Shown piece after piece: positions 2,404 through 21,212 of a stretch of DNA of 64,000 bases (positions are counted from its first letter, which is position 1; every line of letters begins with the position of its first letter). A model generated the notes under the pieces. That model worked only from the letters and a program-made list of their open reading frames with translations. It was not told the origin of the DNA and ran no database searches. Origin of the DNA: an uncultured Actinomycetota bacterium (GTDB lineage Bacteria; Actinomycetota; Actinomycetes; JAHEKZ01); NCBI GenBank assembly GCA_963829525.1, contig CAWHIJ010000003.1, positions 352,001-416,000 of the forward strand, read 5' to 3'. Position numbers and translations under genes: made by a program.

Positions 2404-2446
2404 GGGGGATGAGCGTAGAGGCGTCCGCCCAGCTACGGTGACCGGC

Positions 2447-2902: not shown

Positions 2903-2920
2903 CGTGGACGGGGCGCTGGG

Positions 2921-3005
2921 CGGAGGGTGAGGGATTTGAACCCCCGGATGCTTTCGCATCGCTCGCTTTCAAGGCGAGTGCAATCGGCCGCTCTGCCAAC
3001 CCTCC
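2921..3005 (-). tRNA. tRNA-Ser(TGA)
   Basis: Reverse complement folds as a cloverleaf: acceptor GGAGGGT/ACCCTCC, anticodon arm CTCGC-CTTGAAA-GCGAG, long variable arm, GTTCAAATC T-loop. Confidence 0.95.
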
Positions 3006-3081
3006 CGGGGTGGTCATTCTGCCGTACCCGGGAACGCAGATCACAACGTGTTGGCTCTCTGGGGTCATCCCCCCAGCCAAC

Positions 3082-4056: not shown

Positions 4057-6623
4057 GAGCCGGCTCCACCGCCGGCGAGCACCTCGGCGGCCATGGCGGA
4101 GACCTCGAGCCGGTCGATCTTTGAGTTGTGTCGGATGTCGACCGGCAGCTCGTCCACCACAAGTGCCGCGGCGAAGTCGACTCCTGCCGCGAGTCGCAGC
4201 GTGTCAACTAGATCGATGGATGCGACACCCTCGGTCTGCTGCGGCGCTTCAACAACTGCGACGACCACTTGACGACCGGGGGGCCCTACCCCGACGACGG
4301 CAGCAAGAGCAACGGCGTCAAGCCGCTCGAGCCGTTGCTCAGGACCCACGGGCGTCACGACGCCCGCTGGTGTCGTTATCACGTGAGCGATGCGTCCTTC
4401 AACCCAGAGTCGGCCGTCGACATCGAGGTGGCCGATGTCGCCGGTGCGGTGCCACCCGTGATCGCGCGCGCTGTCGCGCTGGGTGGCCCAGAGCTGGTCG
4501 TAGTGGTCCTTGACGTGTGGTCCACGTACGCAGATCTCGCCACTGACGTCGGGGGTGTCGGTCAGGGGCCCGGTCGGTGCACCGGACTGATCGAGCGGGC
4601 TGATCGCCACCTGCACCCCGGTGACCGGATGGCCGACTAGCACCCCGTTGCCCCGTCCACCGACTTCGAGTTCTGCGAGGGTGACGTCAGCGACGGGTAG
4701 CGCCTCGGTCATGCCGTAAGGCGTGTGCGCCTCGCAACCCCCCAGCAAATTGGACGCCGCGCGCAGCGTCTCGCGCGATACAGGCGCTCCGGCCGACAAC
4801 AGGAGACGTACGCGGGCGCATCGTGCGCGCTGAGCAGGATCGAGCGTGGACGCAGTGCGCACGATGTTGCGCAGGGCAGCGGGTGCCGCGAAGACGAGAG
4901 AGGCGTCAATGGCAGCGATCGCGTTCGCGAGCGCATTCGAGGTGAGGGTGCCTGGCTTCGTGACGTCCATGTCGGGAACGGCCGATGCAATGCCGAGCGC
5001 TGGTCCGAAGAGCGCGAACGGCGCGAAGGCGGCGACCAGACGGTCACCGGGGCGGATGCCGAACGTGGCACGCACGATGTCACGTTGAGCCTCAAGCTGG
5101 GCGTGGCGATACACGACGCCCTTGGCCGGCCCCGTCGCACCGGAGGTGAAGAGCACCGCAGCCTGGGCCGTGACCGGTGGCGTGGACGACGTCGGCAGCT
5201 GGCGCCCGATCTGGGCCAGCTCGACGACGGTGTAGTCGACACCGAGGGCGCGGCGCAGGCCAGGGCCGAATCCGCCGACGGAGATGAACGTGCCGCGTAG
5301 CCCCATCCCCTTGGCAGCGCTCAAACCGCGTGCGACACCGATCACGTGCTGAACGCCCGCGCCGCGCAGGGCACGACGTAGGCCAGGGAGCCCGAGCCCG
5401 GCATCGGCGATGACCGGTACGGCTCCGGCACGCCAGGTGGCGTAGAGAACTGCGGTGAGATCAGCGCCAGGGGGAACGAGCAACGCCACCCGGTCCGCAG
5501 GTCGTACGCCGACGGCGGTCAGCCCCGCTGAGACGTCCCGAACGGTGGCCGCCAGCTGCTTCCAGGTGATGGTTCTGGCCGGCCCGCGACGGCCCATCTC
5601 GATGACGGCGACGGCGTTGTCGCCCGCGCGTCCCTCCAGCGCCGACCAGAGTGTGCGGCGTTCAGGCCCGGTTGTGGGTAGCAGCGGAGGGTGCGTGCGC
5701 AGCTCGCGCGTGCGACCAGCTGTGAGATCGTCGGCAAAACGCCGGACGGTGGCGGCAACGGGGGCATCTTCGATGACGAGGTGGCCGGCGCCCTCGAAGC
5801 GATGCGTCTGAGCCTGGGGCAACCGCCGTTGCAGGTCGCGAAGGTAGCGGTCAGCGAAGACCGGGTCGCGGGGACCCCAGAGCAGCAGCGTCGGGATGTC
5901 TCGAAGCACCGGCAGTCCTTCGGCCACCTCCTCAAGCGTCTCGCCGCTCGGGTGGTTGGCCTCAAGAGGAATGTCGGCGACGAAGTCGGCGATCGACTGC
6001 CGACTTGCAGCCGACCGGTAGGGAGCGCGGTAGGCGTCGGCAACGCCTCGAGGCAGAGCGGGATGCGCCAACCGGAGCGTGCCGTCGAGGAAGGTGCGGG
6101 TTCGCTGGGTCACGGTACGCAGCAGCCCACCTGCGCGAGCGGCGGAGATCAGTGGCGGGATGTGCGCACCGTCAGGCTGGCTGACGGCGGTGTTGAGCAG
6201 CACGATTCCGGACACGAGCTCGCGGTGCCGTTGCGACCAGCCGAGGGAGATCGGGCCACCCCAGTCGTGCGCAACGACGAGCACCGGCGCAGTGACGTCG
6301 AGTGTGTCCGTCAGTGAACCGAGCTGGTCTATTCGGTCGGCGAGTGTGTGGACTTCGCCGGTTCGTTCGCTGAAGCCCATACCGAGATGGTCGGGGGCGA
6401 TCACCCGCCAGCTGTCCGACAGCTCAGCGACCAGCGACCGAAAGGTGTACGACCACGTGGGGTTCCCATGCACACACAGCACGGTGCCCACTGGGTCAGC
6501 TGGGGCAGCGTCGAGGACGTGCCACTCGTGTTGGATGCCGCGGCTGTCTGGCGCCGTGACGATCTTTGACCATTGCGGATCGAGACCCGGAAGGTCGGAG
6601 GGAGGGAGAGACGCGCCGGTCAC
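4053..6623 (-). CDS. oleBC: OleBC fusion (alpha/beta-hydrolase beta-lactone decarboxylase + AMP-dependent beta-lactone synthetase)
   Basis: N-terminal HGNPTWS and HDWGG; C-terminal FTSGATGPAKG, YGMTE and HRTGD adenylation motifs; lies between oleA and oleD. Confidence 0.85.
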   Translation of the reverse strand: MTGASLPPSDLPGLDPQWSKIVTAPDSRGIQHEWHVLDAAPADPVGTVLCVHGNPTWSYTFRSLVAELSDSWRVIAPDHLGMGFSERTGEVHTLADRIDQLGSLTDTLDVTAPVLVVAHDWGGPISLGWSQRHRELVSGIVLLNTAVSQPDGAHIPPLISAARAGGLLRTVTQRTRTFLDGTLRLAHPALPRGVADAYRAPYRSAASRQSIADFVADIPLEANHPSGETLEEVAEGLPVLRDIPTLLLWGPRDPVFADRYLRDLQRRLPQAQTHRFEGAGHLVIEDAPVAATVRRFADDLTAGRTRELRTHPPLLPTTGPERRTLWSALEGRAGDNAVAVIEMGRRGPARTITWKQLAATVRDVSAGLTAVGVRPADRVALLVPPGADLTAVLYATWRAGAVPVIADAGLGLPGLRRALRGAGVQHVIGVARGLSAAKGMGLRGTFISVGGFGPGLRRALGVDYTVVELAQIGRQLPTSSTPPVTAQAAVLFTSGATGPAKGVVYRHAQLEAQRDIVRATFGIRPGDRLVAAFAPFALFGPALGIASAVPDMDVTKPGTLTSNALANAIAAIDASLVFAAPAALRNIVRTASTLDPAQRARCARVRLLLSAGAPVSRETLRAASNLLGGCEAHTPYGMTEALPVADVTLAELEVGGRGNGVLVGHPVTGVQVAISPLDQSGAPTGPLTDTPDVSGEICVRGPHVKDHYDQLWATQRDSARDHGWHRTGDIGHLDVDGRLWVEGRIAHVITTPAGVVTPVGPEQRLERLDAVALAAVVGVGPPGRQVVVAVVEAPQQTEGVASIDLVDTLRLAAGVDFAAALVVDELPVDIRHNSKIDRLEVSAMAAEVLAGGGAGS

Positions 6624-7639
6624 CAGACGATTTCGCAGAAGGCGGTGTTCAGACCCGAACCGATGCCCATGCAGAGCACGCGGTCACCTGGCATGAGGTT
6701 GTCGACCTCGTGAGCGAGGGTGAAGGGCACGGACGCAGGACCGATGTTGCCGAAGAACGGGAACGACAGCGGCACCTTCTTCTGGTCGATGCCGAGCCGC
6801 TCACAGAGCGCGCTGGTATGCACTCGGGAGACCTGGTGGATGATGAACCGGTCGGCGTCCGACCAGTCGAAGTCGCCCGTCTTCCAGGCGGCCTCGGCAA
6901 GATCGAGGCCGGCGTCCATGAGGCCTCGGGCGTCGGTGTGCATCTGCTCCATGTCGCCGACGCAGAGGCCGTGGTGTTCGGTGCCGGCCCGGGACACCCC
7001 ACCTATGACGCGGTGACCCTCGCTGTGAAGGTCGCTACGGCCAAGCACCATCGCCGCTGCACCCGACCCCAGCGTCAAGGTGGCGAACTCGCTGAAGAAG
7101 TCGGCCGTTGTTGCCATCGGCGAGCAGAGTCGGCGGATGGTGTTCTCCTGGACCTTCTGCGCGTCCTCACCGTTGACGATGAGGGCGTAGTCGATGTGTC
7201 CGGCGTCGATCATCGTGGCGGCTATATGAATGCCATTGACAAAACCGAGGCAGGCGTTGGCCAGGTCGAAGTTCATCGCTGAGGGCGGCAGCCCGAGCTT
7301 GTGGTGGATCCCGACGGCCGTCGACGGTTCGAGGAAGGCCCTCGACACCGATGAGTTGATCATGAGGCCGATCTGGGATGGGTCGACGCCGGCCTGCGCG
7401 ATCGCCTTGGCGCCGGCCATGGCGGCACCGTCGGCGAAGTTCATGCCCTCGGGCCACCATCGGCGCTCATGGATGCCAGCGAGCCCTTCAAGCAGCCCAG
7501 GGCGGGCGCCAAGGCGCTCGTAGGCAGGAGCCAGCTGCTCGTCGAGCTCGGTGGAGGTGACCACGACTGGGGCTTCGATCGCCACGACCGACAGCACTGA
7601 CGTGCGGGAGTGGCGGAAGGTTGAGTTGCCGTCCATCAA
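6620..7639 (-). CDS. oleA: OleA thiolase-fold acyl-CoA condensing enzyme (KAS III-like)
   Basis: EPSTA, NACLGF (catalytic Cys), HQVS, GNIGPASVP, GIGSGLN motifs. Confidence 0.88.
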   Translation of the reverse strand: MMDGNSTFRHSRTSVLSVVAIEAPVVVTSTELDEQLAPAYERLGARPGLLEGLAGIHERRWWPEGMNFADGAAMAGAKAIAQAGVDPSQIGLMINSSVSRAFLEPSTAVGIHHKLGLPPSAMNFDLANACLGFVNGIHIAATMIDAGHIDYALIVNGEDAQKVQENTIRRLCSPMATTADFFSEFATLTLGSGAAAMVLGRSDLHSEGHRVIGGVSRAGTEHHGLCVGDMEQMHTDARGLMDAGLDLAEAAWKTGDFDWSDADRFIIHQVSRVHTSALCERLGIDQKKVPLSFPFFGNIGPASVPFTLAHEVDNLMPGDRVLCMGIGSGLNTAFCEIVW

Positions 7640-7700
7640 TTCCTCTCTGGGTAACCGCGAAAGTGTCCCATGAGGGGTAGTGATGGTCCGAACTCAGGGC

Positions 7701-9158
7701 TCAGAGGTTGATGACAGCCGCAGCGCCGTGCCGCCTGTGGTCGCCGGTGGCCTCCAGGCGACCATCGGGATGCCGCATCACCGCATTGACGCCGCCGAAG
7801 TACATGCTGCCGCGGCTCCAGCGATTGACTGGGCCCAGCGGTGCCAGGTCAGCGGCGACCCCCTCGGCCACGTCTGGCTCGAGCTGGCTGGTCGTGCCAT
7901 CGAAGTGCACCCGTGGTGCGGCGACCGCCTCGGCAAGGGGGAGGCCGGCCACCAGGTGTGTGACCGTCTGCAACAACGCGCTGCGGATGCGCTCGCTGCC
8001 ACCACTGCCGATCGCCACTACTGACCCGTCAGCGAGATCGAGAAGGCTGGGCGCCATCATTGACGCGACCCGGGTGCCGGGCTCGGCGTCATGGAAGCCA
8101 TCGGGATGCAGGTCCGCCTCGCCCAGCATGTTGTTCAGCTGGACGCCGGTTCCGGGGACGAGGACTCCTGAACACGAGCCGTTGGACGTCGTCATCGAGG
8201 CGACCATTCCGTCGGCGTCGATCACGCTGACGTGCGTCGTGCCCTTGGACGAGCTGGCGACGTTGCGCCGGGTCTTCTGCGCCTCGGTCGCAAGGTGCAG
8301 TGCTTCCACCAGATCCCGGGGTCTCGGACGTGAGTCACGCTCGTCACCGTCGAGTTCGCGCAGAGCGGCGCAGACGATCGAACCGCCAAACGAAGGTGGT
8401 GGGTTCGTCGTCAGCCGGGCTCCCCGGTAGTCGACGTGATGCGGCGCGCGGGCCTGCACGCGGTAGGACGCGAGGTCGTCATGGGTGAGGAGGCCATCGC
8501 TGGCGCGCATCCGGCTCAACAGTTCCTGCGTCTGGGGGATCTGGACCCAGCTCTCCGGATCGAGGCGTCCGAGCTGGTCGAGGAACCTTGCGTACTCAGA
8601 ATTGGCGAAGCGGTCACCGGCAAGGCGGGGTCGGCCTTCGGGAAGAAAGAGGTGGGCCGCGTCTGGGCTGAGGGCAAAGATGGCGCGCAGCAGCTGCAGC
8701 ACTTCGGCCTGGGTGGAACTGAGCACGGCACCCTGTCTAGCCAGGTTGCCGGCTGGCGCCACCACCTGTGAAAGGGGAATCCTGCCGAGCCTGCGGTGGG
8801 CAGCGAGGTAGCCACTGAGAACGCCGGGTACAGCCACAGATCCGAACCCTGCGTGAAATGTCTGCTCGGCGTCAGAGAAGACGACTGTGACGGGGGTGAA
8901 GTGGGGGGTCAGCTCTCCAGGTGGGAGGCCTTGCCCCGGGACGTCGACGAAGAAGTCCAACAGCTCGGTTTCGCCGGTGGGGCGCCGGGTGAGCAAGAAG
9001 CCACCACCGCCCAGGCTGGTAAGTCCTGGTTCTGCCACGGCGGCGGCGAACCCGGCCCCAAGTGCGGCGTCCACGGCGTTCCCCCCAGCACGAAGCACGG
9101 CGACTGCCGCCCCGACGGTCTGCCGGTCACCCGCGGCAACGGCCGCCTGCCCACCCAT
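7701..9158 (-). CDS. ggt: Gamma-glutamyltransferase family protein
   Basis: GGNAVDAA, GGGGF, TTHVSVID.DG (nucleophile Thr), NNMLGE, SMMAP, GSGGS motifs. Confidence 0.88.
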   Translation of the reverse strand: MGGQAAVAAGDRQTVGAAVAVLRAGGNAVDAALGAGFAAAVAEPGLTSLGGGGFLLTRRPTGETELLDFFVDVPGQGLPPGELTPHFTPVTVVFSDAEQTFHAGFGSVAVPGVLSGYLAAHRRLGRIPLSQVVAPAGNLARQGAVLSSTQAEVLQLLRAIFALSPDAAHLFLPEGRPRLAGDRFANSEYARFLDQLGRLDPESWVQIPQTQELLSRMRASDGLLTHDDLASYRVQARAPHHVDYRGARLTTNPPPSFGGSIVCAALRELDGDERDSRPRPRDLVEALHLATEAQKTRRNVASSSKGTTHVSVIDADGMVASMTTSNGSCSGVLVPGTGVQLNNMLGEADLHPDGFHDAEPGTRVASMMAPSLLDLADGSVVAIGSGGSERIRSALLQTVTHLVAGLPLAEAVAAPRVHFDGTTSQLEPDVAEGVAADLAPLGPVNRWSRGSMYFGGVNAVMRHPDGRLEATGDHRRHGAAAVINL

Positions 9159-9238
9159 AGGCCGGAGAGTAACCACCGGCCTCGCCGTTACACACTGTCA
9201 CCCGTTCGGCCCGCCGCAGAGTGACTAATCCGGACGGA

Positions 9239-9266
9239 TCAAGAAAGGTCCAGTGGCTGCCGACAC
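9239..9266 (+). promoter_or_regulatory. Sigma28 (FliA/WhiG)-type promoter upstream of the MCP gene
   Basis: TCAAG (9239-9243) - N15 - GCCGACAC (9259-9266), matching the TAAA-N15-GCCGATAA architecture, 110 bp before the MCP ATG. Confidence 0.55.
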
Positions 9267-9375
9267 AACTGATGTCTCGCCCGGATCGCTCGCGGGTGCG
9301 CCCTGTTTGGGGTGCGCTCGATTGAGTTGCTCGGGACGCGATGGCCGGGGGCGTTTCGACAGGCGGAAAGGCGCA

Positions 9376-10906
9376 ATGGACAACCCGCAGCAGTTGGCGC
9401 GCACTGGCGCCTTGGCGGCATGGGTCAATGCCGGCCTGGGCCTGGTGCTGACCGTGCTGATCCACGTCGCCGACAAGTCGGTCCCCGTGGCCCTCCTTCC
9501 CGCCCTGATCTGGTGCGTACTGGGATTCGCCTTTGCGGCCAGTCGTGACGGTCTTGGCCCGGAGAGCGGCTAGCCAGCGACTCGAGGTCGGCAACCGTCG
9601 TCTTGCGCATGCCCTGATCACCACCGAGATGGTGTGGGTCGCGGGCCTCGTCGCGCTTACCGGCGGTTTACGCAGTCCCGTCTGGGTGCTGTTCGTCACC
9701 GTTGCCGTCTTCGTGGCCGATGTCGTCGAGCGCAAGGGACTGGCCACCTTCACTCTGCTCGCACTCGGCATGCTCTTCGCGGCGGCTCTCGCGTCCGGAA
9801 CCTTCAGCCTGCAGGTTCTGCCATGGTTGCTGGCTGCCGCAGCGATCATCCCGCTCACCGTCGGGTTCGACGAGATGCTCAAGTCCGGTATCCATGAGGG
9901 TCACAACACTCGGTTGCAGCGGAGCGTCGAAGAGCTCTCGGTGTCTTTGGGACAGGCTGCCGAGGGTGATCTCGCAGTTGCCATCCCAACGCCGGATGGC
10001 GACGATGTGGCGCTTCACTCGCTGGCGATCAACATCGACGAGACGTTGGTCTCGCTGCGTATGTTGGTCGATCGAGTCCGCGATGGTGGTGAGCGCATAT
10101 CGGTGAGTGCGCAAGAGCTGCAGTCAGCTGCCGAACTTCAGGCGTCAGCCTCGTCGAAGCAGTCGGGTGCGGTGACCGAGTCGACAGTGACCTTGCAGCA
10201 GCTCGCTGACATGGCCGAGACGATCGCTTCCTCCAGCGCCGAAGTAGTCGACCAGGCGGCGTTGACCTACCGTTATGCCGAGGAAGGCCAAGAGGCTGTC
10301 ACGAACGCCGTCGACGCAATCGATGCGATCGCCCATCGTTCCCGGTTGGTGGCCGAGCGGACCGCTGCGCTGGCCGACAAGTCAGGTGAGATCGGCCGCA
10401 TTCTCGATGTGATCGACGAACTTGCCAACCAGACCAACTTGCTCGCGTTGAACGCTGCGATCGAGGCCGCCCGTGCCGGTGAGCATGGCCGGGGCTTTGC
10501 CGTTGTTGCTGCGGAGGTTCGCAAGCTGGCTGAGCGTGCCCAGGCGTCGACCAAGCAGATCCAGACGATCGTCTCGGAGATCCAAGCCGAGATGCGGGCC
10601 ACAACGGCGGCGACGGCAGAAGGTGCAGAGGAAGTACTCAACGGCGTTGCCCTCGCCCGCGATGTCGTGACCGTCCTCGAGCGCATCTCCGAGGTTGCTG
10701 ACGAGACGACGACGGCAGCACGCGAGATCTCCAACGCCTCCGCACAGCAGCGTACGGCCTCGGCCGAGGTCGCTTCTGCGATGAATGACGTCGTTGGCGT
10801 CTCCGAGCAGACCGCGACAGGTTCGCGCGAGGCGGCCCATGCAGCCGCATCCCTCACGTCCCTGGCCGACGACCTCAGAGAGTCGATCTCCCGCTTCCGC
10901 ATCTAA
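9376..10906 (+). CDS. Methyl-accepting chemotaxis protein (apparent +1 frameshift near 9540)
   Basis: [34 protein letters not shown] signalling hairpin; multi-TM N-terminus; ATG 9376 with GGAAAGG RBS is in another frame until GCG GCC A GTC GTG. Confidence 0.9.
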
Positions 10907-10965
10907 GGCTCGCCGAGTGCACATCTGGCTGACGCCGAGGCTTGCCGAGTGCACATCAGGCTGAC
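10906..10965 (+). repeat. Two 28-bp direct repeats (period 32)
   Basis: aggctcgccgagtgcacatctggctgac at 10906-10933 and aggcttgccgagtgcacatcaggctgac at 10938-10965; 2 mismatches. Confidence 0.85.
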
Positions 10966-10982
10966 ACAGTTCGCCGTCGGGT

Positions 10983-12341
10983 GTGGTGGTTTGGGAGACT
11001 GACGCGGTGGTTCCCCCCTCCCTTGCTCCCAGCCTCGGCGATGCCGCGCGGACGTGGGCGTACGTCGGAGTCAACAGCTTCGGGGGACCGGCTGGCCAGA
11101 TCGCCGTCATGCACCGAGTCGTCGTTGACGAGCGACGGTGGATCGACGAGAAGCGCTACCTGCACGCGCTCAACTTCTGCATGGTGTTGCCCGGACCAGA
11201 GGCACTCCAGCTAGCGGTGTATCTCGGGTGGGTGCTCAACGGCGTCACCGGCGGCTTGATCGCTGGCGTTTTCTTCGTCATCCCGGGCCTGGCAGTGATG
11301 GCGGTCCTTGCCGCCATCTATTCCTCGTTCGGCGACATCGGCTGGATCTCCGCGCTGCTCTTCGGCATTCAGACCGCCGTCATCGCGATTGTGGTGCAGG
11401 CTGTCATACGAGTGGGACGCCGCTCGCTCCGGACACCACTCCTCGTTTCGCTTGCAGTGGGCGCCTTCATCGCACTTGCACTGTTCAACGTTCTCTTCCC
11501 GTTCGTCGTCGTCGCCGCCCTCGTCATCGGTTGGGTGGTTGGCCGTCGATCGCCTCGCGCCTTGCATGTCACCGTCGACCACGACGCCGAAGTGGACCAT
11601 GTTTCGCGGGCGGCAACCCGTTCTGCGCGTCGTGCCGGGTATGCAGCTCTCGTTCTCTGGGCTGTGCCGCTGTTGCTGATCATGGCCACCCTTGGCATGG
11701 AGAACATCCTCAGCCAACAGGCATGGCTGTTCGCGAAGACGGCGGTACTTTCCTTCGGGGGCGCTTACGCGGCGCTTTCGTATGTGTCTCAACAGGCGGT
11801 GGTCAACTACGCCTGGCTCGAACCCCGGGACATGGTTGCTGGATTGGGGTTGGCCGAGACGACGCCGGGGCCACTTGTTCTGGTCATGACTTTCGTCGGG
11901 TATGTGGGTGCCTATCGGGCATCGGATGACCTTGGCCTGCCCGGAGCCGTTGCCGGACTCATCGGGTTCTCCATCGCCGCCTGGGCGACGTTCTTGCCGT
12001 CATTGGGCTTCGTCCTTATCGGCGCGCCATCGGTGGAACGGCTACGGCACAACCCCAGAGTTGCCGGTTCATTGGCAGCGGTGACCGCGGCGGTCGTTGG
12101 CGTCATCGCCGATCTGGCGCTGTGGTTCTCGCTGAACGTCCTCTTCGATGACCTCTCCTGGCGATCTTGGGGACCAATCAGAGTGGAAGTCCCGGTTCCG
12201 GGTTCGCTGGACGGCCCTGCGCTGCTTCTGACGGCGGCAAGCCTGGTCCTGGTGCTCGGGCTGAAGTGGGGGCTGCTTCGCGTTCTGTCGCTCGCGGCGG
12301 CAGCGGGCCTGACGCTGTCCCTCCTCGGCCTTCATCCCTGA
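10983..12341 (+). CDS. chrA: Chromate efflux transporter (long-chain CHR)
   Basis: SFGGPAGQIAVM, LPGPEALQLA, FGGAYA, ETTPGP motifs in two homologous halves. Confidence 0.92.
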   Translation: MVVWETDAVVPPSLAPSLGDAARTWAYVGVNSFGGPAGQIAVMHRVVVDERRWIDEKRYLHALNFCMVLPGPEALQLAVYLGWVLNGVTGGLIAGVFFVIPGLAVMAVLAAIYSSFGDIGWISALLFGIQTAVIAIVVQAVIRVGRRSLRTPLLVSLAVGAFIALALFNVLFPFVVVAALVIGWVVGRRSPRALHVTVDHDAEVDHVSRAATRSARRAGYAALVLWAVPLLLIMATLGMENILSQQAWLFAKTAVLSFGGAYAALSYVSQQAVVNYAWLEPRDMVAGLGLAETTPGPLVLVMTFVGYVGAYRASDDLGLPGAVAGLIGFSIAAWATFLPSLGFVLIGAPSVERLRHNPRVAGSLAAVTAAVVGVIADLALWFSLNVLFDDLSWRSWGPIRVEVPVPGSLDGPALLLTAASLVLVLGLKWGLLRVLSLAAAAGLTLSLLGLHP

Positions 12342-12394
12342 CAATCTTCGTCAAAATCCTCGCGCAAGAGGGCTGACGTTCCTAGGCTCACCGT

Positions 12395-13792
12395 GTGACG
12401 GAGCGCCCAATCGCCCCCAGCACCCTGAATGCGCGAGCTGCGTATCGGAGTGCTGTCGACCGCCTGCGGGTGCAATTCCGCGAGTTGGAAAGCGATGCAC
12501 CCATCAGGCTGGCGAAGCGAACGTCAAATCTCTTTCGCATGCGCGAACCCAATGACACACCCGGTCTGGACGTCGCGGCGTTCTCCGGTGTCATTGAGGT
12601 TGACCCCGTTGGTCGGACGGCAGACGTCCTAGGGATGACCACCTACGAAGACCTCGTTGACGCCACGCTCCGTCATGGGCTTATGCCGCTCGTTGTGCCT
12701 GAGCTGAAGACGATCACCTTGGGGGGCGCCGTCACTGGCCTCGGCATCGAGTCGACGTCGTTCCGCAACGGGTGTCCGCACGAGTCGGTCATCGACTTCG
12801 ACGTTCTGCTCGGCGACGGCCGGGTCATCACCGTGACCCCAGACGGCCCACACGCCGATCTGTTTACCGGATTCCCGAACTCCTACGGGACGCTGGGCTA
12901 CGCGTTGCGACTGCGGATCGAGCTTGAGCCAGTGAAGGCATTCGTCGTGCTGGAGCACTATCAGCACCACTCAGCGGCTGAGGCTGCCCAGACGATTCGC
13001 GAGATTGCACGGACCCGCGAGCACCGTAGCCGCCACGTCGACTTCGTTGACGGTGTCATCTTCGGTCGGAACCGTGTCATCATCACGGTGGCCCGATACG
13101 TCGATGAGGCGCCGTACCTCTCCGACTACACAAGGGCGAGTATCTACTACAAGTCGCTCGTGCAACGCAGCAGCGACTACCTAACGATTCGTGACTATCT
13201 TTGGCGCTGGGACACCGACTGGTTCTGGTGTTCGGGCGCTCTTGGTGTTCAGAATCCGATGGTTCGTCCGTTCCTGCCCCGACGGCTTCTGCGCAGCGAT
13301 GTCTACTGGAAGGCTGTCGGATTCGAACGGCGGCACCGGTGGAAGTCCGGTTGGGATGAAAGGCGTGGCCACCCACCGCGCGAACCGGTGATCCAGGATG
13401 TCGAAGTGCCGGTCGATCGCCTTGATGAGTTCCTCGACTTCTTCCACAGTGAGATCGGCATCGCGCCGGTGTGGATCTGCCCGCTGAGACAGCGCAGAGA
13501 TGATCTGACGTGGGACCTGTACGCCCTTGACCCTGACACGACCTATGTGAATCTCGGCTTCTGGTCGTCGGTGGAGATGACTCCCGGGCAGCGAGATGCT
13601 CACCACAACCGAAGGATCGAAGAGGTTGTCGCCGCGCTCGGAGGAAGAAAGTCGCTCTACTCGTCCTCGTACTACGACGAAGACGTGTTCTGGAGCATCT
13701 ACAACGGGGAGCAGTACGCGTTGTTGAAGAAGCAGTACGACCCGCAGGGTCGGTTGCTTGATCTCTATTCCAAGTGTGTGCGGGGACGTTGA
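12395..13792 (+). CDS. FAD-binding oxidoreductase, BfaA/TmsA (Rv3719)-like, 10-methyl fatty acid pathway
   Basis: RLAKRTSNLFR, VVPELKTITLGGAVTGLGIES, WRWDTDWFWCS, KSLYS motifs; paired with a Cfa-type methyltransferase. Confidence 0.8.
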   Translation: MTERPIAPSTLNARAAYRSAVDRLRVQFRELESDAPIRLAKRTSNLFRMREPNDTPGLDVAAFSGVIEVDPVGRTADVLGMTTYEDLVDATLRHGLMPLVVPELKTITLGGAVTGLGIESTSFRNGCPHESVIDFDVLLGDGRVITVTPDGPHADLFTGFPNSYGTLGYALRLRIELEPVKAFVVLEHYQHHSAAEAAQTIREIARTREHRSRHVDFVDGVIFGRNRVIITVARYVDEAPYLSDYTRASIYYKSLVQRSSDYLTIRDYLWRWDTDWFWCSGALGVQNPMVRPFLPRRLLRSDVYWKAVGFERRHRWKSGWDERRGHPPREPVIQDVEVPVDRLDEFLDFFHSEIGIAPVWICPLRQRRDDLTWDLYALDPDTTYVNLGFWSSVEMTPGQRDAHHNRRIEEVVAALGGRKSLYSSSYYDEDVFWSIYNGEQYALLKKQYDPQGRLLDLYSKCVRGR

Positions 13793-13800
13793 GGAGGAAC

Positions 13801-15051
13801 ATGGCCACATCATCGGTCGCCACTGCCTTCGGCCGGGTCATCGGTGAGCGTCCGGGGCTTCGCCTGACGGCGTACGACGGCAGTGCGTTCGGAGACGATG
13901 CGGCCGACGTCACCCTCTCCATTCGGTCGCCCGAGGCCGTGCAGTACCTGGCCACTGCGCCGGGTGACCTCGGACTCGCGCGGGCGTTCGTGAGCGGTTC
14001 CCTCGTGGTTGAGGGAAGTTTGCACCGTGCGTTAACTCTGCTCGTGATGGACGGTGCGCAAGATGCCTCGACTCGCGACAAGCTCCAGGTCCTGCGAGAG
14101 CTTGGCGGCTGGGTTCTTCGGCGCCCTCCGCTTCCAGCAGAGGAAGCGTCACCACCATGGCGACGCGGTCTACGGCACAGCAAAGACCGGGATGCCAAGG
14201 CGGTCGCCCACCACTACGACGTGTCCAACCGCTTCTATGAACTGGTACTGGGTTCGTCGATGACCTATACCTGCGCCGTCTACCCGACGCCCGAAACTTC
14301 GCTTGCGGATGCCCAAGCATCCAAGTGCGACCTGGTGGCACGCAAGCTCACGCTTGAGCCAGGTATGCGATTGCTCGATGTCGGGTGCGGCTGGGGCAGC
14401 ATGGTGATGCATGCAGCTGAGCACTATGGAGTCAAAGCCCTAGGGGTGACACTGTCGCAGCAGCAGGCTGAGTGGGCGCAGAAGACGATTGCCGAACGCG
14501 GACTAGCCGATCGTGCCGAGGTGCGCTTTCTCGACTATCGCGACGTGCCGGAGTCAGGTTTCGATGCGATTTCCTCTATCGGGCTGACTGAGCACATCGG
14601 ACGCCGTCAACTCGGCTCGTACTTCACCCGGCTCGTGGGCAAACTGCACCCGGAGGGACGCATGCTCAACCACTGCATTACGCGTCCCACGACGCGGGAG
14701 CGAGCGCGCACTGGCGGGTTCATCGACCGGTACGTATTCCCAGACGGGGAGTTGCTCGGCGTAGGAACCATCGTGTCGTCGATGCAGAATCACGGTCTTG
14801 AGCCTCGACATGACGAGAACCTCCGCGAGCACTACGCGATGACGTGTCGTGACTGGGGCGCCAATCTGGATGCGAACTGGGAAGAGGCCGTCGCCGAGGT
14901 GGGAGAGCGACGTGCGCGAGTGTGGCAGCTCTACATCGCCGCATCACAGGCGGGTTTCGACATCAACAACATCCAGCTGCATCAGATTCTTGGAGTGAAG
15001 CTGGGGAAGGACGGCACCTCCGGGTTCCCACTTCGTTCGAACTTCTCTTGA
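13801..15051 (+). CDS. SAM-dependent fatty-acyl-phospholipid methyltransferase, Cfa/BfaB/TmsB (Rv3720)-like
   Basis: HHYDVSN, MTYTCA, LDVGCGWG, FIDRYVFPDGEL; GAGGAGG RBS before ATG 13801. Confidence 0.88.
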   Translation: MATSSVATAFGRVIGERPGLRLTAYDGSAFGDDAADVTLSIRSPEAVQYLATAPGDLGLARAFVSGSLVVEGSLHRALTLLVMDGAQDASTRDKLQVLRELGGWVLRRPPLPAEEASPPWRRGLRHSKDRDAKAVAHHYDVSNRFYELVLGSSMTYTCAVYPTPETSLADAQASKCDLVARKLTLEPGMRLLDVGCGWGSMVMHAAEHYGVKALGVTLSQQQAEWAQKTIAERGLADRAEVRFLDYRDVPESGFDAISSIGLTEHIGRRQLGSYFTRLVGKLHPEGRMLNHCITRPTTRERARTGGFIDRYVFPDGELLGVGTIVSSMQNHGLEPRHDENLREHYAMTCRDWGANLDANWEEAVAEVGERRARVWQLYIAASQAGFDINNIQLHQILGVKLGKDGTSGFPLRSNFS

Positions 15052-16053
15052 CTAGAGCCAACGTCTACGCTTGAACATCACGTAGAGGAGGAGCGAGACG
15101 CCCACCCATATGACGGTGCTTGTCCAGAAGCCGCTGTGTGCCGCGAAACCCGGATAGGGGATGTTCTGCCCGTAGAAGCCGGTGACCGCAGTCGGGACGG
15201 CGATGATGGCCGCCCACGCCGCGAGCTGCCGAGTGACCGTGTTGAGCGAGTGATCGTTGAGTGCGAGACGTGTCTCGTAGATGGTGGTAATCAGGTCGCG
15301 TAGGCCTTCGATGGTGTCGTTGACACGCAGAACGTGGTCGTAGACGTCCTGGAAGTAGGGCTGCATAGCTGCGTTGACGGTTGATCGACCGCCCTCCTCG
15401 TGACGCATGAGTCCCGAAACGAGTTCGCGCATCGGCTGGGCCGCGCGGCGCAGCCGAACCAGCGCCTTACGAGTAGCGAAGCTGTGCTTCTGCGCGTCAC
15501 GCGGGTCGACGTCTCGACTGGGTTGGTCCTGGAACAGAACGTCCTCCATGTCGTCAACCGCGTCAGACAGCGCGTCGACCGTGTCGAGGTATGAGTCGAC
15601 GACAAGGTCAAGAAGTGCGTACAGCAGGGCGGGAATGCCCTGATCGAGCAGCTCAGGATTCTGCTCCCAGCGGGTGACAAGGTCGCTCATTTCGATGGGG
15701 TGCGAGTGCTCCACCGCGATAACGCTCTCGTTTGTGATGATCACCGGCGAACCGCGTAAGTCGAGGGTTGTGTCGTTGCCGAGCTCTGATCGGTAGAGAT
15801 ACAAGAGGACACAGTTGGGGAAGCGCTCGAGCTTAGTGCGGTGAGCTTGAATGCCGTCGCCGTTGGTGCTGTTGATGACCTCTTCGACCGCACGTGGGTG
15901 AATGTCTAGGAGTGGGCCAAGGTGACGCATCTCGTCGGGGGTCACCTGGATCCACACGACACTCTCGGGGTCTGACGCGAGGCCGACGGCGGCAGCGACG
16001 TTGACCGAGCGATGTTCCAGAGAACGTCCTCGCAACTCCCATACGTCGGCCAC
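15052..16053 (-). CDS. corA: CorA family Mg2+/divalent cation transporter
   Basis: YFQDVYDHVLR and PTAVTGFYGQN (GxN) motifs; two C-terminal TM helices. Confidence 0.88.
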   Translation of the reverse strand: MADVWELRGRSLEHRSVNVAAAVGLASDPESVVWIQVTPDEMRHLGPLLDIHPRAVEEVINSTNGDGIQAHRTKLERFPNCVLLYLYRSELGNDTTLDLRGSPVIITNESVIAVEHSHPIEMSDLVTRWEQNPELLDQGIPALLYALLDLVVDSYLDTVDALSDAVDDMEDVLFQDQPSRDVDPRDAQKHSFATRKALVRLRRAAQPMRELVSGLMRHEEGGRSTVNAAMQPYFQDVYDHVLRVNDTIEGLRDLITTIYETRLALNDHSLNTVTRQLAAWAAIIAVPTAVTGFYGQNIPYPGFAAHSGFWTSTVIWVGVSLLLYVMFKRRRWL

Positions 16054-16145
16054 GGACCCACGGTAGGGCAGAGATCCGGCCGCTAGGTGCTTTGCCGCCC
16101 CACGCCGCTGCCCGGTACCCTTCTCGGGCGGTCGAAAGACCGTGG

Positions 16146-16236
16146 GGAGGCGTCGCCTAGTCCGGTCGATGGCGCCCGCCTGCTAAGCGGGTTGGGGTCT
16201 TAAAGCCCCTCGGGGGTTCAAATCCCCCCGCCTCCG
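16146..16236 (+). tRNA. tRNA-Ser(GCT)
   Basis: Acceptor GGAGGCG/CGCCTCC, anticodon arm CCCGC-CTGCTAA-GCGGG, long variable arm, GTTCAAATC. Confidence 0.95.
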
Positions 16237-16249
16237 CCCCGTCAGTCAT

Positions 16250-16307
16250 CGAGACTGCAGTAGATGCCCACTGAGAGCCCTCAGCGCGGGCATCTACTGC
16301 AGTCTCG
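16250..16307. terminator. 20-bp perfect inverted repeat / long hairpin between the two tRNAs
   Basis: cgagactgcagtagatgccc (16250-16269) and gggcatctactgcagtctcg (16288-16307), plus inner ctgag/ctcag pairing. Confidence 0.6.
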
Positions 16308-16384
16308 GCGGGTTGTTGCGCCCCGGACTCGATTTCGACGCCTGCTGGGCCCCCGGTAAGGTATCGCTTTGGCCCCTGGGCCAT

Positions 16385-16457
16385 GCGCCCGTAGCTCAAC
16401 GGATAGAGCATCTGACTACGGATCAGAAGGTTGGGAGTTCGAATCTCTCCGGGCGCG
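16385..16457 (+). tRNA. tRNA-Arg(ACG)
   Basis: GCGCCCG acceptor, TAGCTCAACGGATAGAGC D-arm, TCTGA-CTACGGA-TCAGA anticodon arm, GTTCGAATC. Confidence 0.97.
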
Positions 16458-16466
16458 CAACGTCAG

Positions 16467-16600
16467 TGTTTGGTTCCGGCTGATGCGTGACGTTTTGGCT
16501 TCGGCTGATGAGTCACGGTGGTTCCGCATGATCGGTGACACTTCTCCGATGTTGGTGGAGCAGAGATTTCAAGTGGTCGACGTGACGGTAACTGCGTTTC
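16467..16600 (+). mobile_element. Probable IS481-family left-end remnant
   Basis: Starts TGT; three ~21-nt imperfect repeats (16471, 16496, 16519, consensus tggttccg.ctgatg.gtgac), then MLVEQRFQVV resembling the V(V)EQRY.AV start of actinobacterial IS481 transposases; no intact transposase. Confidence 0.5.
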
Positions 16601-17504: not shown

Positions 17505-17551
17505 GACTACGGATCAGGAGGTTGGGAGTTCGAATCTCTCCGGGCGCGCCA
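17505..17551 (+). repeat. tRNA-Arg 3' fragment copy R1 (att-like)
   Basis: 43/44 identical to tRNA-Arg 16414-16457, followed by CCA; no 5' half. Confidence 0.95.
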
Positions 17552-17618
17552 CAGGACGCCAGGTAAGTACCGGTTACTGCGGTGAAAGGACCGGGCGACT
17601 CTGGGCTTTCGGGGCGCA

Positions 17619-17640
17619 TTACTGCAGCGATTACTGCAGT
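17619..17640 (+). repeat. Paired TTACTGCA direct repeat (arm-type-site-like)
   Basis: TTACTGCAGCGA-TTACTGCAGT, 12-nt period; a third TTACTGC at 17574. Confidence 0.7.
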
Positions 17641-17673
17641 CCAGTTCGGGAGTGTTGCGGGCAGTCTCTGAAC

Positions 17674-17988
17674 CTAACTTGCCGTGGCGTCGCCGGCGAG
17701 GCCGATGAGGGTTGACCAATCGGGCGCTGCAATCAGTCCGTGCTCCACCCGGGGGAAGGGCAGCGCGAGCGGTTCGAGATGGCGCTGAACGTGCCCGCCG
17801 AACCCGTCGTGACCAACACCGGGTCCCCATACCAGCGTGACGAGCAGTCCCGCCTCCCCGCGGGCGACGACAACCGTGTCTGGTGACACGCCCCCCGAGC
17901 CCTGCCAGCGACGCGCTGCTTCTGCGTACCCGGCGAGGAGCACGTCCGGGTCGCCGGGGAAGTGCAGCATGACCACGTCTTGGCTCAT
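17674..17988 (-). CDS. Hypothetical protein (104 aa), divergent from MarR
   Basis: ATG 17988 (MSQDVVMLHFPGDPD) with AAGGAG RBS. Confidence 0.65.
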   Translation of the reverse strand: MSQDVVMLHFPGDPDVLLAGYAEAARRWQGSGGVSPDTVVVARGEAGLLVTLVWGPGVGHDGFGGHVQRHLEPLALPFPRVEHGLIAAPDWSTLIGLAGDATAS

Positions 17989-18039
17989 CGCAGGCTCCTT
18001 CAGTATAGTTTCTTTACTGTGAAAGGACGGTACAGGAAT

Positions 18040-18498
18040 TTGACCAACTCGTCTACGACCGGTGCGCCACTGGTAGGTGCACTGCTTCGTCGGCCGTTCT
18101 TCACGATGCGGCGCCGCATCGTGTCGGCCCTGCACCGGGAGGGTTACACAGACGTGCAGGCGTCTCACCTCGCCGTCTTCCAGTACCCCGGACCCGAGGG
18201 ACGGTCACCCCTGGAGTTGGCGCGGGATGCTCAGGTGAGCAAGCAGGTCATGAACCACCTACTCACCCAGCTCGAGCACGGTCAGTACCTGGAGCGGGTC
18301 ATCAATCCCGGCAATCATCGCCTGCGTCAGGTGGCGCTCACGGAGCAGGGCCACGCTGTCGTGGCGGTGATCCGCTCTGCCGTTGCAGAGGTGGAGTCGG
18401 AGTGGAAGACGGTCCTGGGACCAAGCACCTATCGACAACTGCGTGGCGCCTTGTTGGAACTCGCTGGCCATCTCGAGCTACCCGAGGGGGATCGCTGA
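18040..18498 (+). CDS. MarR family transcriptional regulator
   Basis: ELARDAQVSKQVMNHLLTQLE..QYLER..NP.NHR...V.LT..G winged helix; start uncertain (GTG 18019 or TTG 18040); CAGTA..TACTG inverted repeat in the divergent promoter. Confidence 0.85.
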   Translation: MTNSSTTGAPLVGALLRRPFFTMRRRIVSALHREGYTDVQASHLAVFQYPGPEGRSPLELARDAQVSKQVMNHLLTQLEHGQYLERVINPGNHRLRQVALTEQGHAVVAVIRSAVAEVESEWKTVLGPSTYRQLRGALLELAGHLELPEGDR

Positions 18499-18528
18499 GC
18501 CCGCGATCCCGTGGGGGAGCGGCCCGCG

Positions 18529-18624
18529 ACCGCGGACGACGTCGGCAGAACCGTGGCCCGGGCCATCGAGGCGGGTGTGGTGGGTGGCAACATCGAGGAT
18601 TTCGGGCCGAATGATTTGATCAGC
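18529..18624 (+). pseudogene. Internal fragment of an ICL/PEP-mutase family gene
   Basis: TADDVGRTVARAIEAGVVGGNIEDFGPNDLIS is 22/32 identical to the segment encoded at 20676-20771. Confidence 0.75.
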
Positions 18625-18639
18625 GATGGTGCCCTTGCC

Positions 18640-18661
18640 TTACTGCAACCGTTACTGCAAC
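18640..18661 (+). repeat. Paired TTACTGCA direct repeat (arm-type-site-like)
   Basis: TTACTGCAACCG-TTACTGCAAC, 12-nt period, same orientation as 17619-17640. Confidence 0.7.
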
Positions 18662-18752
18662 GCCGAGGAACTGAGGGAGACTCCGGAACACTTCCTGAGA
18701 ATGACGTGAGCGTGCTGACACGTCAGGAGACGTGGTGAGACGGCAAAACTAG

Positions 18753-18800
18753 GACTACGGATCAGAAGGTTGGGAGTTCGAATCTGTCCGGTCGCGCAAC
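18753..18800 (+). repeat. tRNA-Arg 3' fragment copy R2 (att-like)
   Basis: 42/44 identical to 16414-16457 and followed by the same CAAC as the intact tRNA. Confidence 0.93.
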
Positions 18801-19011
18801 ATTGCTGCAGGTCAGACGCACCGCGCCGCAGCCGACACCATCTCGACACCGGTGCAAGGGCACAGATACCTCGGTGAAGGAACTGTTTGACCGCCTCCGG
18901 GCATACGGGTTCTTTCCCCTGGTCCTGCTGGATGTTTTCGTTCTCGTCAAGGTCACCGACGATGGCGACCCAACGACTGCGTGCGCTGCTCACTGGGATG
19001 AATCTGACCGC

Positions 19012-19048
19012 ACCACGGATCAGGGGGGGGGGCTTTCGACTGCGTCCG
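19012..19048 (+). repeat. Degenerate tRNA-Arg 3' fragment copy R3
   Basis: Gapless 26/37 match to 16415-16451 (ACGGATCAG-N11-TTCGA...TCCG spacing preserved). Confidence 0.7.
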
Positions 19049-19124
19049 ACCTATGGATGGCTTTGGCCTCTACCACGCCTCGCATTAGGTCGCCACGATC
19101 GAATTGTCAGGGGGGGTGGATGTC

Positions 19125-19496
19125 ATGACAGCCCCAGTCAGCCAGCGTCCAGTGGTTCCCAAGTCGACGCAATCCGCGTGGCTTGTCCTCGCTGTTGGCA
19201 CGCTTGTTACGTTCTTCCTGGGCGTGGCCTCGCAGTTGGCCGTCTTCATCTCTCTCGGTCTCTGCCTGGACGAGGATCCGGACTTGTGCGATCCGGGCAC
19301 GTATCCCACGACGGCCGAGCATCTGCTCGCCACGATCCCGACCTACGCCCTGTGGGTGGCGCCGGCACTCGTCGCGGTGTTCATGGGATACCGGATCGTG
19401 AAGTCCGGGAACGTTGCCGGGCGCACCGTGATGGTCACCGCGGGTGTCGTTGCTGCTCTCGTGACGGTGGTCGCGACGCTCATGTGGTGGATTTGA
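19125..19496 (+). CDS. Hypothetical membrane protein (3 TM, Cys pair in loop)
   Basis: 123 aa, hydrophobic segments flanking CLDEDPDLC; fills the R3-R4 interval. Confidence 0.65.
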   Translation: MTAPVSQRPVVPKSTQSAWLVLAVGTLVTFFLGVASQLAVFISLGLCLDEDPDLCDPGTYPTTAEHLLATIPTYALWVAPALVAVFMGYRIVKSGNVAGRTVMVTAGVVAALVTVVATLMWWI

Positions 19497-19524
19497 TTTC
19501 ACGGGTGCAACTGGCTGGGAATTG

Positions 19525-19552
19525 GGGAGTTCGAATCTCTCCGGGCGCACCA
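19525..19552 (+). repeat. tRNA-Arg 3' fragment copy R4 (T-arm + acceptor)
   Basis: 24/24 match to 16433-16456, then ACCA. Confidence 0.9.
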
Positions 19553-19570
19553 CGTAACGTTCGCCTTAAG

Positions 19571-20396: not shown

Positions 20397-21212
20397 GTGA
20401 CAGCCAAATCTCCGATGAACAGGGCAGCTGCCCTCCTTGCTTTGCACACCGGCCCCGGCTTCGTGCTCCCCAATGCGTGGGACGCGGGATCCGCCCGCGT
20501 CCTCGAGCAGGTCGGCTTCCCCGCCATCGCCACCACCAGCGCCGGCATCGCCTGGTCGTGCGGAGTTCCGGACGGAGAAGCGCTGGACCGCGACACGATG
20601 CTTGACCACGTGGCGCGCATCGTGGCTGCGGTGGGTGTGCCCGTGACCGCGGACCTCGAAGCCGGGTACGGCGACACCGCGGACGCTGTCGGCATCACCG
20701 TTGCCCGGGCAGTCGAACTGGGTGCCGTTGGCGGCAACATTGAGGATTCCAGGGCTGGCGGACTGATCAGCATCGATGAGGCCGTCGACCGTCTTGCGGC
20801 CGCCCGGGCAGCCGGGCCCAGCGGCACCTTCGTGCTGAACGCCCGAACTGACACCTACTTCGTCGGTACGAGTGGTGACGCATTCGACGAGACCGTCGAA
20901 CGCGCAGTTAGGTACGTCGAAGCGGGCGCCGACTGCGTCTTCGTGCCCGGGGTCGTTGAAGAGGAGACGATCCGCCAACTCTCCGAGGCCATCCCCGGCC
21001 CGCTCAACGTGGTAGCCGGGCTTGCGAACCTCATCGATGCGCCGACACTCTTCTCGCTTGGCGTCAAACGGGTCAGCCTGGGCGGCAGTTTGGCACGCGC
21101 CACACTTAGCACGTTGGAGCGCGCCGGCCGCGAGCTGCTTGACTCCGGAACGCTCGACTTCCTCGACGGCGCGATCGGGTACGCCGATCTGCAGCGACGC
21201 TTTGGCTCGTGA
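20397..21212 (+). CDS. Isocitrate lyase / PEP mutase family protein
   Basis: LPNAWDAGSA, ATTSAG, ADLEAGYG, GGNIED, LNARTD, GADCVFVPG. Confidence 0.92.
   Translation: MTAKSPMNRAAALLALHTGPGFVLPNAWDAGSARVLEQVGFPAIATTSAGIAWSCGVPDGEALDRDTMLDHVARIVAAVGVPVTADLEAGYGDTADAVGITVARAVELGAVGGNIEDSRAGGLISIDEAVDRLAAARAAGPSGTFVLNARTDTYFVGTSGDAFDETVERAVRYVEAGADCVFVPGVVEEETIRQLSEAIPGPLNVVAGLANLIDAPTLFSLGVKRVSLGGSLARATLSTLERAGRELLDSGTLDFLDGAIGYADLQRRFGS

Follow-up and report, generated by a model that had tools for sequence, protein, structure and literature searches.

The tRNA-Arg(ACG) locus and its 1.3-kb unit

The window analysed here is a stretch of 64,000 nucleotides (G000:C3:352001-416000) from a source genome, G000, of 2.96 Mb and 65% G+C that is assembled in three contigs. 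A tRNA-Arg(ACG) gene in this window is the head of an array of partial copies of itself. The host flanks of the array comprise tRNA-Ser, CorA and CMAS genes upstream and RibD_C, PEP-mutase and PhyH genes after the last core copy. Behind the tRNA, and separated from it by an interval with a TMEM175-family channel gene, lies a unit of 1.3 kb (17505-18799) between two 47-nt copies of the tRNA-Arg(ACG) 3' half, R1 and R2, which had been proposed in an earlier note on this DNA to be att cores and were recovered as such (Table 1). Two further copies of the tRNA-Arg half follow, a degenerate one at ~19005-19048 and a shorter one at ~19520-19555. Every copy downstream has the same orientation as the tRNA and starts in the anticodon loop. 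Compared with the tRNA, the mismatches fall on positions 14 and 46 of 47 in R1 and on positions 34 and 40 of 47 in R2, and the two cores differ from each other at 4/47 positions. The first 13 core positions, which include the anticodon loop, are invariant across the tRNA, R1 and R2.

Table 1. Features of the tRNA-Arg(ACG) locus and of the 1.3-kb unit (window coordinates)
Feature	Position	Strand	Remarks
tRNA-Ser(GCT)	16146-16238		upstream of tRNA-Arg(ACG)
tRNA-Arg(ACG)	16385-16458	+	integration target, head of array; ARAGORN; Rfam tRNA 69 bits
R1, left core (attL)	17505-17551	+	47-nt copy of tRNA 3' half, from anticodon loop; 45/47 identical to tRNA
Extra TTACTGC followed by TGAAAGGAC	17574-17591	+	fifth TTACTGC
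Left pair TTACTGCAGCGA-TTACTGCAGT	17619-17640	+	putative arm-type sites of the P' arm
GAGACT-N6-AACACT motif	17651-17668	-	inverted relative to the right-arm copy
104-aa ORF	17674-17988	-	divergent; no Pfam family; ABM-like fold as a lead only
Promoter-like TTGGCT-18-TATAGT, then TTACTG-TGAAAGGAC	17980-18028	+	possible operator of the MarR-like gene
MarR-family regulator gene	18040-18498	+	start uncertain; ORF open from 17962
PEP-mutase-family gene fragment	18529-18624	+	internal piece of a pseudogene; 96 nt, ends 15 nt before the right pair
Right (P) arm, conserved	18640-18752	+	pair TTACTGCAACCG-TTACTGCAAC 18640-18661; GAGACT..AACACT 18677-18692; imperfect palindrome 18691-18729
R2, right core (attR)	18753-18799	+	47-nt copy of tRNA 3' half; 45/47 identical to tRNA

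The cargo had been described as a divergent pair of a MarR gene and a hypothetical gene. Both genes are present, but a fragment of a PEP-mutase-family gene had been overlooked. This fragment is 74% identical to positions 20676-20771 of the full gene (20397-21212), which lies 2 kb further on. The product of the MarR-like gene matched 10 MarR-type chains of the PDB with E values of 9e-5 to 5e-3, and its Pfam and NCBIfam matches were below the cut-off. The reported absence of an integrase was confirmed, as none of the genome's five PF00589 matches falls inside the window.

The unit contains two pairs of 8-mers that had been reported to share a 12-nt period and their orientation. This proved correct: TTACTGCAGCGATTACTGCA at 17619-17638 and TTACTGCAACCGTTACTGCA at 18640-18659 are both on the + strand with a period of 12 nt, and they lie at +70..+89 after R1 and at -113..-94 before R2. 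When up to two mismatches were allowed, the pair pattern matched twice in the window, and none of 100 shuffled sequences contained any match. The two pairs of the unit are the only exact matches to TTACTGCA-N4-TTACTGCA in the 2.96-Mb genome. The single 8-mer TTACTGCA was counted four times in the window, always inside the pairs, against an expectation of 0.45, and 15 times genome-wide, including the four in the unit. A chance origin of the pairs is ruled out by the shuffles, the expected counts and the genome-wide uniqueness. An inverted motif with GAGACT and AACACT, also reported for both ends of the unit, was found beside each pair, the two copies being on opposite strands. The pattern GAGACT-N3-7-AACACT is present twice in the window, where 0.01 occurrences are expected, and twice in the whole genome, although these odds are flattering since the pattern was written after the sites had been seen.

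The hexamer TTACTG is likewise concentrated in the unit, with six sites in 1.3 kb, all on the + strand, versus 196 in 5.9 Mb when both strands are counted. Two of the eight genome-wide occurrences of TGAAAGGAC are in the unit, each immediately 3' of a TTACTG. One of these composites, with its TTACTG at 18014, is placed directly behind the promoter-like -10 element and ahead of the MarR-like gene, and the other one is close to R1. This arrangement, together with the density of the hexamer, would fit an explanation in which the TTACTG repeats are operators of the unit's own MarR-like regulator and not recombination sites. MarR operators are usually palindromes, however, and the sites of the pairs are direct repeats; related genomes provided further evidence on this point.

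Arm pairs and right arms in related genomes

The tRNA-Ser/tRNA-Arg locus is syntenic in the family, and extra tRNA-Arg halves and variable DNA were seen behind the tRNA in nearly every family genome whose locus was compared. Three of these genomes (G016, G007 and G006) harbour an integrative mobilisable element (IME) at tRNA-Arg(ACG), with a span of 9-12.5 kb from core to core. According to a Pfam scan of the G016 copy, it encodes a tyrosine integrase of 401 aa, a TrwC relaxase and HipA-like genes, and the integrases are 92-100% identical among the three genomes. All three copies carry pairs of the form CAGCTATG-N4-CAGCTATG at +73..+92 after the left core and at -110..-91 before the right core. 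Within the IME sequences, 10-12.8 kb in length, CAGCTATG is confined to the pairs in two copies and has one extra occurrence in the third. The IMEs and the G000 unit have the target tRNA and the core start in common, and the downstream extension of the core is similar; the pairs agree in their 12-nt period, their orientation and their distances in both arms. Unlike the G000 unit, the IMEs possess their own integrase and the 8-mer is CAGCTATG instead of TTACTGCA; outside the pairs, no clear similarity of the arms is apparent by eye. The geometry shared with integrase-bearing IMEs at the same tRNA is the strongest support for the 8-mer pairs being att arm sites, the role that had been suggested for them, and by this comparison they may be regarded as putative arm-type sites. 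It also stands against operators as their function, as the positions of the pairs match those of the arm pairs of the IMEs.

The right arm together with its core (~160 bp) was found with 83-98% identity in 7/20 family genomes, this family of 20 genomes being the whole order in the collection searched. The non-coding arm is 83-91% identical in other species, compared with 71-82% identity to G000 for the host genes beside the tRNA. The specific arm pattern was additionally found on seven metagenome contigs, and with these included, 18 copies of the right arm were aligned, of which 16 are distinct. All 18 adjoin a tRNA-Arg half and have the orientation of the tRNA, which substantiates the proposed tie between the paired motif and tRNA-Arg att sites. 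A sample of 401 genomes of the class contained the pair with the core in six genomes, all from the source genome's own family, and no pair beside a tRNA-Arg half was found in the 381 other genomes of this sample. G025 and G033 yielded matches to the tRNA core only.

The conserved block begins sharply at the first repeat (TTACTGCAAC), with unrelated sequence upstream in most copies, and extends beyond the pair over nearly the whole 113-nt arm. Its variability by codon phase is 0.093, 0.101 and 0.063, and coding constraint on the arm was ruled out by the lack of codon periodicity and by indels between copies. For the left pair and its surroundings, no counterpart was found in any relative searched. 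The left sides of the other units are heterogeneous and start with unrelated sequence. A unit with arm sites on both sides is thus represented by the G000 copy alone, because the left pair was found in no relative. The description of the unit as a complete cis-acting unit could not be upheld, given that only the right arm is conserved in relatives, that the left pair is unique to G000 and that the gene fragment and the diverged cores point to decay.

Nine complete units ending in the right arm measure 785, 955, 968, 982, 1187, 1248, 1739, 2481 and 5621 bp from core to core, and two arms in tandem were observed on three contigs (L260/L266, L262 and G009:C50). Their cargo is unrelated and includes SRPBCC, Rce1-like protease, PLDc_N/SHOCT, dehydrogenase and MarR genes as well as TetR with a peptidase and pieces of acyl-CoA ligase. 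The genes of the arm-bearing units lie in both orientations, and no integrase was present among the scanned ORFs of the nine units. The right pair is also retained in units without a MarR gene among the scanned ORFs, such as those with SRPBCC, Rce1-like, dehydrogenase, TetR and other cargo. This again speaks against the pairs serving a MarR-like regulator of the unit, which is considered most improbable as an explanation of the TTACTG repeats.

The arm of 160 bp with its tRNA half could also be some other functional unit, for example a small RNA, an insulator or terminator or a transfer origin, and be repeated between accessory genes for this reason. Such a function would be compatible with the conservation of nearly the whole 113-nt arm instead of the pair alone and with the two compensated variants in the imperfect palindrome. 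The same palindrome, however, has about four uncompensated variants, and the covariation term of RNAalifold is ~0. No Rfam match apart from true tRNAs and no terminator-like site was found, and every arm is joined to a tRNA-Arg half that has the orientation of the tRNA, as in att sites. A structured RNA was rejected on the missing Rfam family, the covariation term and the mixture of compensated and uncompensated variants, and another function of the arm as a whole is judged very unlikely.

Closely related genomes differ in the units that they carry. Between tRNA-Ser and tRNA-Arg, L264 matches G000 at 97% identity, yet a different arm-bearing unit stands directly behind its tRNA. This unit, which has an Rce1-like gene, is found again in L261 (94%) with another right neighbour. 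G005 and G008 have the terminal core and the host flank in common (90%), and an arm before this core is present only in G008. The part of the G000 unit from the MarR-like gene to R2 was found at 97% identity in G015, a member of another genus, with a different right flank. Since the units differ between such close relatives, the array must be reassembled within short times, through either site-specific or homologous recombination.

Two repeats in the vicinity of the tRNA or the cores were also considered as arms. The 24-nt repeats at 16469-16540, found behind the tRNA in G000 and elsewhere behind some arm-cores, were rejected as a partner left arm, as the genomes of relatives contain them dispersed over several loci each. 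A combination of TGCAGGTCAGAGC and a hairpin after the cores was rejected as an element-specific arm because it also follows a tRNA-Pro gene in G015. It is a general motif downstream of tRNAs, and the TACTGCAG-like pair at this motif is probably due to chance.

Candidate helper integrases and signs of decay

The earlier note had recommended a search for arm pairs at tRNA-Arg islands and for the integrase belonging to them. The first part was successful insofar as the pair recurs at tRNA-Arg halves, but the second was not: a cognate integrase was not found in G000, the family genomes, the class sample of 401 genomes, IMG/VR or the metagenome contigs. The integrases of G000 itself were dismissed as helpers. 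Two of them are Xer-like by size, one is located beside tRNA-Pro(CGG) and one is frameshifted, and none has TTACTGCA nearby. Apart from Xer-like enzymes, the integrase adjoining tRNA-Pro(CGG) is the sole intact one in G000; it shares 31-33% identity with that of the tRNA-Arg IMEs. No tRNA is contained in the 3.2-kb locus of the frameshifted gene (L004). One small serine recombinase is encoded in G000, far from the unit.

In a six-frame search with the IME integrase, every homologue in the family turned out to lie on a different contig or hundreds of kilobases away, and a TACTGCA pair within 1.5 kb of the integrase was seen at 0/25 family integrase loci. IMG/VR gave 103 matches to the pattern, none of them with a tRNA-Arg core within 250 nt; four contigs with the core turned out to be phage tRNA arrays or an unrelated site, and one distant relative of the integrase was detected. 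Because most relatives are fragmented assemblies from which mobile DNA is easily lost, the missing helper is weak evidence either way.

A scan of contigs from named genomes with a loose pattern produced, among the matches listed, two known loci and L128/G041, a Mycobacteriales MAG by its title. There, an island of 8.5 kb ends on the right at a tRNA-Arg(ACG) half, and GTACTGCAACGCGTACTGCAAC precedes this half by 108 nt. The right arm of this island has a TACTGCAAC pair, and its left arm has different repeats (CCCTATA) beside a degraded integrase. As the two arms contain different repeats, the TACTGCAAC pair need not be an arm site of the integrase, and it could bind an excision factor instead.

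The G041 island, with its right-arm pair and its degraded integrase, is the intermediate to be expected if the G000 unit were a dead fossil. This main rival takes the unit for what decay has left of a formerly autonomous integrative element, with att sites that are no longer used. The arms would then be alike because several decayed copies share a recent ancestor, and the reshuffling would result from homologous recombination between patches of tRNA, core and arm. The PEP-mutase fragment 15 nt from the arm and the differences between R1 and R2 suggest decay in the unit, and the degenerate copies of the tRNA half downstream fit the same picture, as does the failure to find a helper in any of the sets searched. 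Decayed elements in tandem are moreover the rule at such sites according to reviews of the subject (PMC5704250; preprint 10.1101/2020.12.28.424599). Several observations argue against a fossil. The non-coding arm is better conserved in other species than the neighbouring host genes, and in most copies its conservation sets in abruptly at the first repeat. The 16 distinct arms are accompanied by no intact parent, but the sister IME is intact three times, and the units differ between backgrounds that are 97% identical. A fossil is therefore regarded as possible but rather less probable than an element that is or recently was mobile.

Proposed mobilisation and relation to known elements

The unit is best classified as CIME-like and non-autonomous, with an arm of a new family. 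Most likely, and with middling confidence, it is a member of this family that is moved in trans by an integrase, or was until recently, and the G000 copy has been stranded without a helper. Judged from sequence comparison, movement of the unit in trans is plausible. The 1.3-kb unit would accordingly represent a site-specific integrative element without an integrase, one of a tandem array at a tRNA-Arg(ACG) hot spot, with attL and attR as its ends and the tRNA 3' half as the common core. The probable place of crossover would be the anticodon loop, where the tRNA, R1 and R2 show no differences. A heterobivalent tyrosine integrase may bind the 8-mer pairs with its N-terminal arm-binding domain and the cores with its catalytic domains, and the units would move by this integrase. 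Recombination between R1 and R2 would release a circle, and the att site of the circle could then recombine with any tRNA-Arg core, leading to insertion. The enzyme would have to come in trans from a helper, because the unit encodes no recombination machinery, and it might be a sister of the integrase of the IME found at the same tRNA in relatives. As no helper is present in the G000 genome, the G000 copy would be immobile at present.

If the units do move by a borrowed integrase, site-specific integrative elements would have miniature non-autonomous derivatives that multiply and build arrays of gene cassettes at a tRNA. This would be a route for the exchange of accessory genes in a poorly known family of uncultured actinobacteria. 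The CAGCTATG and TTACTGCA arms, with equal geometry and core, would in that case form a natural pair for studying the evolution of arm-site specificity in tyrosine integrases. If they are immobile, what is seen here is a tRNA hot spot with an ordinary graveyard of elements.

The idea of an integrase analogue of a MITE, put forward in the earlier note, is not new, as the term CIME already covers elements that lack an integrase but retain attL and attR (PMC5704250). Like the CIMEs described for streptococci, the G000 unit is devoid of genes for integration or transfer, has kept attL and attR and is arranged in tandem at a tRNA, the streptococcal elements being found at a tRNA or a gene end (PMC5704250). 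Its content is limited to the MarR-like gene, the 104-aa ORF and the gene fragment, and R1 and R2 are direct repeats of the target end. Regarding descent by decay from an ICE or IME, the gene fragment and the diverged cores were seen and the G041 integrase is degraded, and no intact parent with the arm was found. Streptococcal CIMEs, in contrast, are presented as products of decay that become mobile in cis once they have accreted with an ICE or IME. The same source reports that decayed and live elements are commonly found in tandem at a single att site (PMC5704250). The arm-bearing units further differ from CIMEs in being many and very small (0.8-2.5 kb, often with one gene) and in having one well-kept common arm and no parent found. 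As for a likeness to MITEs, 16 distinct copies of the right end were found, the left end is not common to the units and an autonomous partner was not found.

Unusual here are the number of very small units with one well-kept arm and no parent in sight, and their integron-like look. Integron cassettes, like the arm-bearing units, are small, mostly carry a single gene and a conserved recombination site at the end, form tandem arrays and lack a recombinase of their own. Unlike in an integron, no IntI-type integrase or attI lies beside the array. The arms also differ from attC sites in consisting of direct repeats and a tRNA half; the palindrome has no covariation support for a fold. The genes of the arm-bearing units, in contrast to those of integron cassettes, lie in both orientations. 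It is nevertheless conceivable that the units, each made up of one to few genes and the 160-bp arm with a tRNA-Arg half, form an integron-like cassette system built on a tRNA att site, in which they would be captured, stacked and exchanged behind tRNA-Arg(ACG) by a tyrosine integrase from a rarely assembled helper element and would be selected as non-autonomous parasites or shuttles of this integrase instead of being mere decay products. Taken as a whole, this extended scheme is regarded as rather unlikely.

Lambda-type att sites, which are served by heterobivalent tyrosine integrases, have a core in common with the target, here the 47-nt tRNA half, and arm-type repeats flanking it on either side, to which the integrase binds with its N-terminal domain. 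Repeats in such positions are present on both sides in G000, the left pair being restricted to the G000 copy. In the attP sites of actinophages, pairs of arm-type sites of ~11 bp flank the common core (PMC3203893). The attP sites of L5, Giles and Cluster K resemble the unit in having pairs of arm sites on either side of a core derived from a tRNA or tmRNA (PMC3203893). The phages in question encode an integrase themselves, and for L5 binding has been studied, whereas the arm sites of the unit are putative.

A comparable layout has been described for the tycheposons, in which successive integrations are separated by partial tRNAs and remnants are found further in (preprint 10.1101/2020.12.28.424599). 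As described there, tycheposons carry their own recombinase, unlike the arm-bearing units; their islands in Prochlorococcus share with the array at tRNA-Arg(ACG) the integrations at one tRNA, the partial tRNA copies in between and the degenerate remnants further in.

Elements and islands at tRNA-Arg(ACG) in other genomes

In three relatives (G016, G007 and G006), an integrative mobilisable element occupies tRNA-Arg(ACG), and both of its arms carry CAGCTATG pairs. The integrases of the three copies share 92-100% identity and span two genera. A Pfam scan of the G016 copy identified genes for a tyrosine integrase, a TrwC relaxase and a sigma factor, together with HipA-like and HIRAN genes. In the distant genome G041, an island flanked by tRNA-Arg(ACG) halves contains a TOTE-type AEP primase-helicase, a PIN-domain gene, a PRiA4_ORF3-like gene and a degraded integrase, which is preceded by four CCCTATA repeats.

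Features at tRNA-Arg(ACG) in the window and in other genomes
Feature	Location	Description
Inverted repeat	window 16250-16307	perfect, 20 nt, 18-nt loop; includes CTACTGCAG; between tRNA-Ser and tRNA-Arg
Direct repeats	window 16469-16540	three, ~24 nt each, TTTGGTTCCGGCTGATGCGTGACG type; directly 3' of tRNA-Arg
PEP-mutase-family gene fragment	window 18511-18738	within the integrase-less unit
tRNA-Arg-half copies	window 19005-19048 and 19520-19555	two more, degenerate or shorter
Integrative mobilisable element	L022 (G016:C5) 7226-16374; L341 (G007:C20); L342 (G006:C77)	9-12.5 kb
Island	L280 (G041:C98) 1934-10517	8.5 kb; flanked by two tRNA-Arg(ACG) halves

Gene remnant and further tRNA halves in the window

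The PEP-mutase fragment is 74% identical to the full gene of the host, which lies 2 kb away (20397-21212), and 78% identical to its counterpart in the relative G005. At some point, therefore, the unit either contained or acquired a paralogue of a host gene next to it. Beyond the unit lie the two further tRNA-half copies; ten consecutive G interrupt the first. Both appear to be older layers of this tRNA-Arg array. The 130-aa open reading frame between them (19104-19496) was assigned to no family.

Repeats and hairpins next to tRNA genes

The TTTGGTTCCGGCTGATGCGTGACG-type repeat is a dispersed intergenic repeat: its block also lies 3' of the arm-cores in the unit-bearing contigs L260/L266 and L261 and recurs at several unlinked loci in relatives (six in G001, three in G018 and two in G010). 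The inverted repeat, kept in contig L264, probably acts as a terminator or as a processing hairpin. Many tRNA-Arg cores are followed on the 3' side by TGCAGGTCAGAGC and then a G+C-rich hairpin. In L318 (G015:C256, a relative), at about 480-560, the same combination lies 3' of a tRNA-Pro(GGG) gene. It appears to be a signal that the whole lineage carries 3' of its tRNA genes.
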